Positions 6,846 through 6,985 of a DNA stretch of 20,830 nt are shown in pieces. Within the stretch, counting starts at the first letter, position 1. The number at the start of each line of letters is the position of its first letter. Source of the stretch: Pseudomonadota bacterium (lineage in GTDB: Bacteria > Pseudomonadota > Alphaproteobacteria > RF32 > CAG-239); contig CAKJXZ020000029.1 of NCBI GenBank assembly GCA_918234285.1, positions 1 through 20,830 on the forward strand, in the 5' to 3' direction. A program made the position numbers and the translations under genes. Below the pieces are notes generated by a model. That model did no database searches. It had not been told where the DNA came from and worked only from the letters and a program-made list of their open reading frames with translations.

Positions 6846-6985
6846 AACTCCTTAGCGGGAATATAATCTTTTGATGCCTGCCTGTCAAAAATTCCCTTTT
6901 GTAAAGAGTTTCAACTGTTTGTATTTTAAGCGGTTATTCCATCCGGATTTGCCTAAAGGCAGGCAGCAAGCGTTAACCGTCGCTC
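6846..6985 (-). ncRNA. Candidate structured cis-regulatory 5' leader RNA (two hairpins with complementary loops, anti-SD helix)
   Basis: Helices found by eye: 6979-6974/6936-6931, 6969-6966/6952-6949, 6965-6957/6883-6875 (9 bp perfect), 6910-6902/6854-6846 (covers SD), 6896-6891/6862-6857, 6890-6885/6874-6869. Confidence 0.55.

Follow-up and report, generated by a model that had tools for sequence, protein, structure and literature searches.

The stretch analysed here, which we call the window, comprises 20,830 nt of an alphaproteobacterial contig (CAKJXZ020000029.1), and in it pyrH (7131-7841, plus strand) and an open reading frame (ORF) for 445 amino acids (ORF445; 5502-6839, minus strand) diverge from a common spacer. 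A first-pass annotation proposed that the minus-strand transcript of this spacer forms two hairpins whose loops hold perfectly complementary 9-mers, which raises the question of whether this pairing exists and to what kind of RNA it would belong. Comparison of homologous spacers leads us to regard positions 6986-6837 (minus strand) as probably the 5' leader of ORF445, a compact, doubly pseudoknotted RNA that would control translation initiation. The fold itself, including sequestration of the Shine-Dalgarno (SD) sequence and a docking helix, is shown at the level of aligned sequences by covariation.

The kissing helix and its pseudoknot

Homologous leaders were identified with a covariance model (R1) built from 25 leaders of the version found here (type a) with their nested structure, and its matches were gathered from three sources: genomes of the family, one representative genome per species, and metagenomes. 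The union alignment (A7) holds 90 matches, 89 of them distinct, with scores of 50-173 bits. In the alignment, about 150 nt (6986-6837, minus strand) are strongly conserved, from just past a predicted promoter to the AUG. Where ORF445-family paralogues stand in tandem, a second version (type b) separates gene 1 from gene 2 and starts about 10 nt past the gene-1 stop. The elements of the leader and its flanks are listed below, all on the minus strand.

6994-7023, minus: sigma-70-like promoter (predicted), -35 TTGACA 7023-7018, 18-nt spacer, -10 TACAGT 6999-6994; 10/12 in a consensus scan
6968-6985, minus: P0 hairpin, GAGCG 6985-6981 / CGCUU 6972-6968; its loop carries the P1 5' strand
6931-6979, minus: P1, the hairpin-1 stem, (C)GGUUA 6979-6974 / UAACC(G) 6936-6931
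6958-6965, minus: kissing helix 5' strand, UGCCUGCC; compensatory changes at 4 positions
6948-6952, minus: invariant unpaired GCRAA (GCAAA here) in alignments A1, A3 and A7, after a spacer variable in length and sequence
6938-6947, minus: P2b mini-hairpin, UCC-GGAU-GGA, from covariation
6917-6930, minus: A/U-rich interdomain linker, variable in length and sequence in the alignments
6902-6916, minus: anti-SD strand, AGUU 6916-6913 and AACUCUUUA 6910-6902, from the minimum free energy (MFE) fold, covariation and a duplex test
6857-6896, minus: hairpin 2, with P3b GGGAAU/AUUCCC (6896-6891/6862-6857), P3c UUUUGA/UCAAAA (6890-6885/6874-6869) and apical loop 6884-6875
6875-6882, minus: kissing helix 3' strand, GGCAGGCA, in the apical loop, abutting the P3c 3' strand
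6840-6854, minus: SD strand, UAAGGAGUU 6854-6846 (SD AAGGAG 6853-6848) and GACU 6843-6840; pairs with the anti-SD strand
5502-6839, minus: ORF445, the putatively regulated gene, 445 aa, AUG 6839-6837, from the ORF list

The kissing helix and P0 lie outside the covariance model, so that the alignment was fitted to neither. Compensatory double changes occur at four of the eight kissing pairs, in 7 rows where 0.3 would be expected, and no shuffle out of 500 reached this level. Pairing is possible in 94.7% of alignment cells, against 26-48% in slid controls, and all eight pairs can form in 67 of 69 type-a rows. The complementarity noticed in the first-pass annotation is therefore a real pairing, one pair shorter than proposed: at U6957-A6883, just 19 of 62 rows have a standard pair, and the conserved kissing helix is, on this comparative evidence, 8 bp (6965-6958 with 6882-6875), not 9. 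Counted over the 89 distinct leaders, the strand pairs (5' strand : 3' strand) are distributed as follows.

UGCCUGCC : GGCAGGCA, 52 rows, consensus
UGCCUGCC : GGCAGGCG, 6 rows, U.G wobble
UACCUGCC : GGCAGGUA, 3 rows, compensatory
UGCCUACC : GGUAGGCA, 2 rows, compensatory
UGUCUGCC : GGCAGACA, 1 row, compensatory; identical leaders in two genomes
UGCCGGCC : GGCCGGCG, 1 row, compensatory
C-to-U wobble variants, 2 rows, G.U-compatible
mismatched type-a leaders, 2 rows: AGCC..., and UGCCUACC with the loop unchanged
type b, AUCCUGCC : GGCAGGCA, 17 rows, plus one cut copy and one variant
copy without the 5' domain, 1 row (G007:C45)

The compensatory variants occur in genera g18, g19, g1 and g33 and in two further records, which suggests that several such changes arose independently. 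Of 11 one-sided changes in type a, 9 are G.U-compatible, which fits RNA pairing and not DNA symmetry, and the scan of metagenomes (28 matches) yielded no further kissing-helix variants. In type b the helix has six pairs and the loop 7 nt; the two 5'-most pairs are lost, and the loop C and A are absorbed into a longer, GC-richer P3c. With the loop strand abutting the 3' strand of P3c, the linker that crosses the groove measures 2 nt in type a and 1 nt in type b, and general pseudoknot geometry suggests that the kissing helix can stack on P3c. As a free duplex, this perfect GC-rich 8-mer has a predicted energy of -15.1 kcal/mol.

All coordinates previously assigned to the hairpins, loops and 9-mers proved correct on the minus strand. 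CGGTTA (6979-6974) and TAACCG (6936-6931) are located as described, TGCCTGCCT (in RNA form UGCCUGCCU) occupies 6965-6957, and AGGCAGGCA occupies 6883-6875 inside the 10-nt loop 6884-6875 of hairpin 2, whose segments are GGGAAT (6896-6891), TTTTGA (6890-6885), TCAAAA (6874-6869) and ATTCCC (6862-6857). The proposed pseudoknot topology also stands, since P1 encloses the 5' partner while the 3' partner lies outside P1. The 3' partner sits in a terminal hairpin loop, as P3c covaries and closes 10 nt (type a) or 7 nt (type b); around the 5' partner, only P1 demonstrably encloses the strand. An inner UUGC/GCAA helix, which would make the 5' partner a true hairpin loop, found no support: UUGC/GCRA is pairable in 98.6% of cases and lacks covariation (242 of 500 shuffles are as good), it overlaps P0, and variants at its outer position pair within P0. 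Because the inner helix lacks covariation and overlaps the covarying P0, the architecture is, judged from the alignments, probably a loop-to-internal-strand pseudoknot rather than a classic loop-loop kiss.

Two alternative partners for these strands were rejected. The local TGCC-TTTA-GGCA sequence is present at 6961-6950, and the first-pass annotation had suggested that the hairpin it would form competes with the kiss to give two alternative folds. This hairpin (P2a, UGCC/GGCR) has no double changes and three uncompensated G-C breaks, with three breaks and seven gaps at its closing pair. A G-to-A change that is repaired in the kissing helix (G081, G002) breaks it, and since it breaks without repair in these rows, a two-state switch built on it is unsupported. 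The alternative loop partner proposed by RNAalifold, GCUUGC:GCAGGC, is broken by a G-to-A change in G066 and G068 that is compensated in the kissing helix.

From the single sequence, the 9-mer pair is unremarkable. Its exact sequence occurs only at these two sites within the window, and with at most one mismatch there are 6 matches where 2.7 are expected (a level reached by 9 of 100 shuffles). The window contains 38 perfect 9-nt inverted repeats with a spacing of 3-120 nt (overlapping counts), compared with 16.9 +/- 5.5 in 200 shuffles, at least one such repeat is found in 16% of 2000 shuffled intergenic regions, and the nested fold of the whole leader has a z-score of -1.9, with 6 of 200 shuffles as good. 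The claim that the pair is non-random thus fails on these statistics and is upheld by the comparative evidence, which lifts the pairing above chance because 89 distinct homologous leaders retain it, with compensatory changes. A DNA uptake sequence (DUS) or genomic repeat was rejected as the source of the 9-mer: on both strands of the 2.0-Mb genome (43.4% GC) it occurs 8 times against 9.5 expected from base composition, and known motifs of the DUS and uptake signal sequence (USS) type occur 0-23 times. The commonest 12-mers of the genome are overlapping parts of one GC-rich repeat (e.g., AAGTCGGCGGAG, 47 copies; neighbours, 35-46 copies), which suggests a dispersed short repeat family unrelated to the leader.

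Two structured domains and Shine-Dalgarno sequestration

Covariation extends to the complete structure. In alignment A3 (66 rows), 91.4% of cells are paired, compared with 81.0% in shuffled and 37-48% in slid controls, double changes occur at 39 of 48 pairs, and the covariation score is 0.337 against 0.168, which none of 500 shuffles equalled. An alignment made with MAFFT only (A2) gave 93.6% of cells paired against 36-50% slid and 11 pairs changed on both sides; 2 of 500 shuffles reached 11 such pairs and none reached the observed values for cells paired or covariation score. A conserved, structured domain of the 5' untranslated region is thus backed by covariation. Beyond the elements of the first-pass annotation, the analysis added the promoter, the P0/P1 pseudoknot, P2b and the anti-SD:SD helix.

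The 5' domain probably begins at the transcript start. In 66 of 69 type-a leaders, TTGAC[A/T/G], 16-18 nt and a -10 hexamer follow one another, with 5-8 nt from the end of the hexamer to model position 1; this fixed distance predicts transcription to start at about 6988-6986 and would place the structured domain at the very 5' end of the RNA. Its first element, P0, has both-side changes at 5 of 6 pairs and 90.9% of cells paired, against 23-49% in slid controls (0 of 500 shuffles). Since the 5' strand of P1 serves as the loop of P0, the two hairpin elements form an H-type pseudoknot, with linkers of 0-2 nt. P1, proposed earlier as the outer stem of hairpin 1, covaries as GGUUA/UAACC with double changes at 4 of 6 pairs (GC39/AU23, AU42/GC18 and GC51/AU6/GU5/UA1 at individual pairs); it becomes GAUUA/UAAUC in type b and GGUUG/CAACC in other genera. 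P2b shows double changes at all three pairs (e.g., UA34/CG29 and CG46/UA17) with 100% of cells paired and CUC/GAG and CCU/GGG as variants. Many invariant unpaired nucleotides lie at junctions: a GC, the GCRAA, the P2b loop and a single A.

The 3' domain, joined through the variable linker, is shown by the same alignments to be one long irregular hairpin that base pairs the SD with an anti-SD. AAGGAG sits 8 nt ahead of the ORF445 AUG, and the helices P3a0 (AGUU...GACU) and P3a (AACUCUUUA/UAAGGAGUU) bring the upstream anti-SD into pairing with the SD and with the bases that follow it as far as the AUG. The MFE structure of the domain equals the comparative structure P3a0-P3a-P3b-P3c exactly, at -19.8 kcal/mol (z = -3.18; 1 of 200 shuffles). 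Both stems described earlier for hairpin 2 were borne out, with double changes in A3 at 6 of 6 pairs in P3b (variants GAGGAU/AUCCUC and GGGGA/UCCCC) and 5 of 6 in P3c (GCAAUG/CAUUGC in type b, UUUGG/CCAAA elsewhere); their inclusion in the model biases that alignment toward them, and the MAFFT-only alignment concurs. In an alignment-free test, anti-SD:SD duplexes averaged -13.06 kcal/mol for cognate and -9.49 kcal/mol for non-cognate partners, and the cognate partner was favoured in 68 of 70 rows, which none of 2000 permutations equalled, a result inflated by kinship among the rows. With this helix supported, the leader has an expression platform able to occlude the SD; a terminator was not found at the leader.

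Two further features of the leader were noted. The linker at 6912-6920 (AAACAGUUG, minus strand) is a perfect 9-nt complement of 6786-6794 in codons 16-18 of the ORF, which is probably due to chance because the linker varies in relatives. Hairpin 2 contains a promoter-like TTGACA-N17-TATATT (discussed below), from which a transcript would carry the SD without the anti-SD.

Distribution, gene family and possible function

The leader was found in 24 of 50 genomes of the genus and, by the R1 search, in 30 of 151 sampled family genomes representing 9 of 23 genera. Among the species representatives, 62 R1 matches fell in 54 of the 80 loci searched, and all 54 belong to records whose titles name uncultured bins from rumen or gut (Alphaproteobacteria, proteobacteria, Rhodospirillaceae or Azospirillaceae); none of the Firmicutes or other records among the 80 that fitted merely the loose pattern gave a match. 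Metagenomes added 28 matches, and sheep and bovine gut metagenomes hold matching DNA. A contig from a sheep-gut RNA library (one metatranscriptome run) spans 6747-6916 with 2 differences, which is weak evidence of transcription; a run searched as raw reads gave 0 reads, which carries no weight as a test.

No established family accounts for the leader. Across the window, only three tRNAs reach the gathering threshold of any of the 4227 Rfam 15 models (tRNA genes at 125-214, minus strand, and at 20440-20522 and 20571-20641, plus strand). Within 6780-7060, a search at E values up to 10 returned only CRISPR-DR21 (18 bits against a threshold of 48) and mir-214 (12.4 against 66.7), and covariance models of the cobalamin and AdoCbl-variant riboswitches (B12-box core) gave no match even at E values up to 10. 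Full-text literature searches, confined to articles without their supplementary files, found no specific description of it.

Three atypical matches were also seen. G007:C45 (L061:1365-1477) consists of a lone 3' domain (anti-SD, SD, and hairpin 2 with GGCAGGCA in its loop) before a full-length family gene, with unrelated sequence in place of the 5' pseudoknot domain. In G220 (L107:1501-1604), a degenerate 5' domain is followed by a terminator-like GC hairpin and a U-run; this remnant lies between a comEC-like gene and a convergent prfC and has no family gene. A second remnant, in G256 (L108:1501-1536), is a solitary match resembling hairpin 2.

The leader is tied to a single gene family. In 52 of the 54 loci, the RNA ends where a family member on that strand begins, so that the genes concerned share no metabolic or transport theme beyond this one family, and no other neighbour recurs among the loci, transporter or biosynthetic genes included. 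The family is present in 69 of 283 genomes of the order and 14 of 24 genera; the 92 homologues of ORF445, all in Alphaproteobacteria bins, are unnamed or annotated as 'hypothetical protein' and have no Pfam domain. Many genomes carry two or three tandem paralogues, the third of which lacks a leader and directly follows gene 2, within about 15 nt. Short homologues of 162 aa are preceded by the leader as well; in one genome only (G249, L106:2177-2503), a gene for a 108-aa SugE/SMR-type small multidrug-resistance-like protein lies 66 nt past such a homologue.

Promoter, leader and ORF (approximately 5501-7030) together make up a compact insertion, some 1.5 kb long, that separates plsY from pyrH. 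The site is empty in six relatives of the same genus (L012, L014, L016, L018, L019 and L020), where plsY is about 90-115 nt from the region upstream of pyrH. When relatives were searched at the DNA level, similarity started abruptly at about 6986, in many genomes on contigs other than that of pyrH, and elsewhere the module adjoins comEC, secY/rplO and other genes. The insertion (5501-7030) showed neither a target-site duplication nor a terminal repeat.

The AlphaFold model of the ORF445 protein is confident (pLDDT 92.5). Foldseek gave no match in PDB at E <= 0.001, and VIA-align found residues 263-354 weakly similar to GSPII/MshEN-type N-domains (Z 5-6.3, a range that the tool calls common). 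Pfam yielded only Glyoxalase_8 (E 0.18) for ORF445 and sub-threshold matches for the paralogues and the short homologue, NCBIfam no more than 52 residues aligned with the N-terminus of a 'DNA helicase' model (24 bits, where the cut-off is 156), and searches of PADLOC, PHROGs, PDB sequences and the ESM Atlas gave no match for the family protein. The protein consists of three similar modules, each with an F-x-DG-x-L motif, and a helical C-terminal part; it is this part that weakly matches the N-terminus of the 'DNA helicase' model, over 52 residues, and the start of Glyoxalase_8.

How might such a leader act? In the mechanism that we propose, the transcript would begin at about 6987, as the promoter lies at a fixed distance in type-a copies, and the kissing helix would stack on P3c and dock the SD-sequestering hairpin onto the pseudoknot core. 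The docked, folded state would block 30S binding (OFF), and an effector at the core or at the interface would shift the balance between docked, closed and open forms. We tentatively allow for a small molecule or ion as this effector, consider the encoded protein somewhat doubtful in that role, and assign the remainder to constitutive or other behavior.

As an orphan riboswitch, the leader would bind a small molecule or ion at the P0/P1/kissing core, which would stabilize the docked fold and repress translation with docking like that of cobalamin riboswitches. This reading, which we entertain tentatively, is consistent with the many invariant unpaired junction nucleotides, the doubly pseudoknotted core, the separate SD-sequestering platform joined through a variable linker and the lack of a matching Rfam family, but the leader is tied to one protein family only, its kiss appears too strong and perfect to be ligand-gated, and there is no candidate ligand. 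That strict association makes autoregulation about as likely as a small-molecule ligand, though doubtful in itself: an ORF445-family protein, or a complex of paralogues, would bind the leader and repress its own translation, as with ribosomal-protein leaders. The strict coupling of RNA and protein family, the two larger paralogues each with its own leader variant (a or b), the leaders of the 162-aa homologues and the travel of promoter, leader and gene as one cassette would all fit, whereas no RNA-binding domain was recognized in Pfam, NCBIfam, PADLOC, PHROGs or PDB sequences, the fold matches are weak (best Z 6.3, to GSPII/MshEN-like domains) and the third paralogue lacks a leader. A constitutive structure that acts with no effector, by keeping basal translation low, protecting the mRNA 5' end or sensing temperature, seems rather unlikely. 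The SD hairpin is stable, a kiss of this strength should form unaided, and neither a terminator nor an alternative fold with covariation support was found; nevertheless, an RNA of about 150 nt, with its two pseudoknots and the many invariant bases that stay unpaired, far exceeds what masking an SD needs, and record titles and run labels place the hosts of a would-be thermosensor in animal gut and rumen, which are thermally stable.

Readings that dispense with RNA pairing fare much worse. It is very improbable that the 8-mers are inverted operator half-sites or that the TTGACA-N17-TATATT in hairpin 2 (6888-6860, minus strand) is a working promoter. The 8-mers do form an inverted repeat in DNA and the hexamers are near the sigma-70 consensus (11/12), but the stems covary while the loops are fixed, the one-sided changes are G.U-compatible, some 75 bp separate the half-sites, the internal -10 either loses its final T in relatives, where TATATC, TTGTTC and AACATC occur, or is lost altogether, and type b lacks the TTGACA. 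Because its -10 is not conserved, the promoter-like site probably arises incidentally from the sequence of the stem. Chance complementarity in an AT-rich spacer, which the unremarkable single-sequence statistics would have allowed, is refuted by the conservation and compensatory changes across the 89 distinct copies and retains a negligible probability.

Several observations weigh against a translation-controlling leader as we describe it. Alignments A3 and A7 lean toward the nested helices, which formed part of the model, and the rows are related, so the shuffle controls exaggerate significance. The kiss is broken in one type-a row (A x C, G233) and has a terminal mismatch in another, and the 5' domain is dispensable at least in G007:C45. 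Service to a single protein family is unusual for metabolite riboswitches, and the RNA-library contig could stem from DNA contamination. The kiss may also form constitutively as part of the architecture, with the sensing left to the pseudoknot core or to a protein, because it is a perfect GC-rich 8-mer whereas the cobalamin kiss needs a bulge for ligand dependence. Finally, the start, effector and regulatory output of the leader are ones that we infer. Within the favored translation-controlling leader, our most specific suggestion, offered as a possibility only, is a new riboswitch class of uncultured gut and rumen Alphaproteobacteria in which a small molecule or ion is read at the docking interface of the kissing helix and switches a mobile cassette of three paralogues. 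In a bolder variant, two RNA molecules would kiss each other, or the type-a leader would kiss the type-b leader on the same operon mRNA, to give an RNA dimer or cross-talk, since covariation cannot tell cis from trans pairing.

Relation to known RNAs

The leader is a new RNA family built on known principles, namely SD sequestration, an H-type pseudoknot and docking by a kissing helix. It is well defined, with a length of about 150 nt, two pseudoknots, a covariance model and 89 distinct copies, and it grew from a guess on a single sequence that independent compensatory mutations confirmed, which is rare for first-pass structure calls. Its hosts are Alphaproteobacteria of animal and human gut known only as metagenome bins, a group whose regulation is almost undescribed. 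Knowing what the leader senses should hint at the role of the ORF445 family, which has a confident predicted fold and no match in PDB, Pfam, PHROGs or PADLOC.

Parts of the architecture recur in several known riboswitches. SAM-II, preQ1-II and fluoride riboswitches, found in 5' leaders of Proteobacteria with SD control, have a hairpin loop that pairs with a downstream strand, as P0/P1 does here; the leader differs in having its SD outside this pseudoknot and a second, long-range pseudoknot, with no sequence or model similarity. The ZTP (pfl) riboswitch consists of two subdomains with a linker of variable length, held together by a pseudoknot of conserved strands, and the two domains of the leader are held in the same manner across a variable linker, although consensus and fold differ and Rfam gave no match. 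Guanidine-II (mini-ykkC) and guanidine-IV (mepA) riboswitches regulate through a loop-loop contact of two leader hairpins, in which short ACGR-type loops form 2-4 pairs and the ligand is bound at the kiss, whereas the loops of the leader are not ACGR, its helix is 8 bp and it matches no Rfam model.

The closest parallel is the cobalamin riboswitch with its L5-L13 kissing loop. As described in PMC10907184, a loop-loop helix between aptamer and platform occludes the ribosome-binding site (RBS) and represses translation, kisses of this kind as a rule comprise 5-7 pairs, and the cobalamin kiss owes its ligand dependence to a bulge. The leader is alike in that an aptamer-like domain and a separate small platform hairpin are joined by a loop-mediated helix. 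It differs in that its RBS lies in the base helix of the platform and not in the platform loop, its 5' partner is probably an internal strand of a pseudoknotted core and not a terminal loop, and its core fold is unrelated, with no Rfam match. Its kiss, a perfect 8-bp GC-rich duplex where the cobalamin kiss has 5-7 bp with a bulge, would stand beside an H-type pseudoknot and offers a useful contrast to the weak, ligand-gated kiss of the cobalamin riboswitch.

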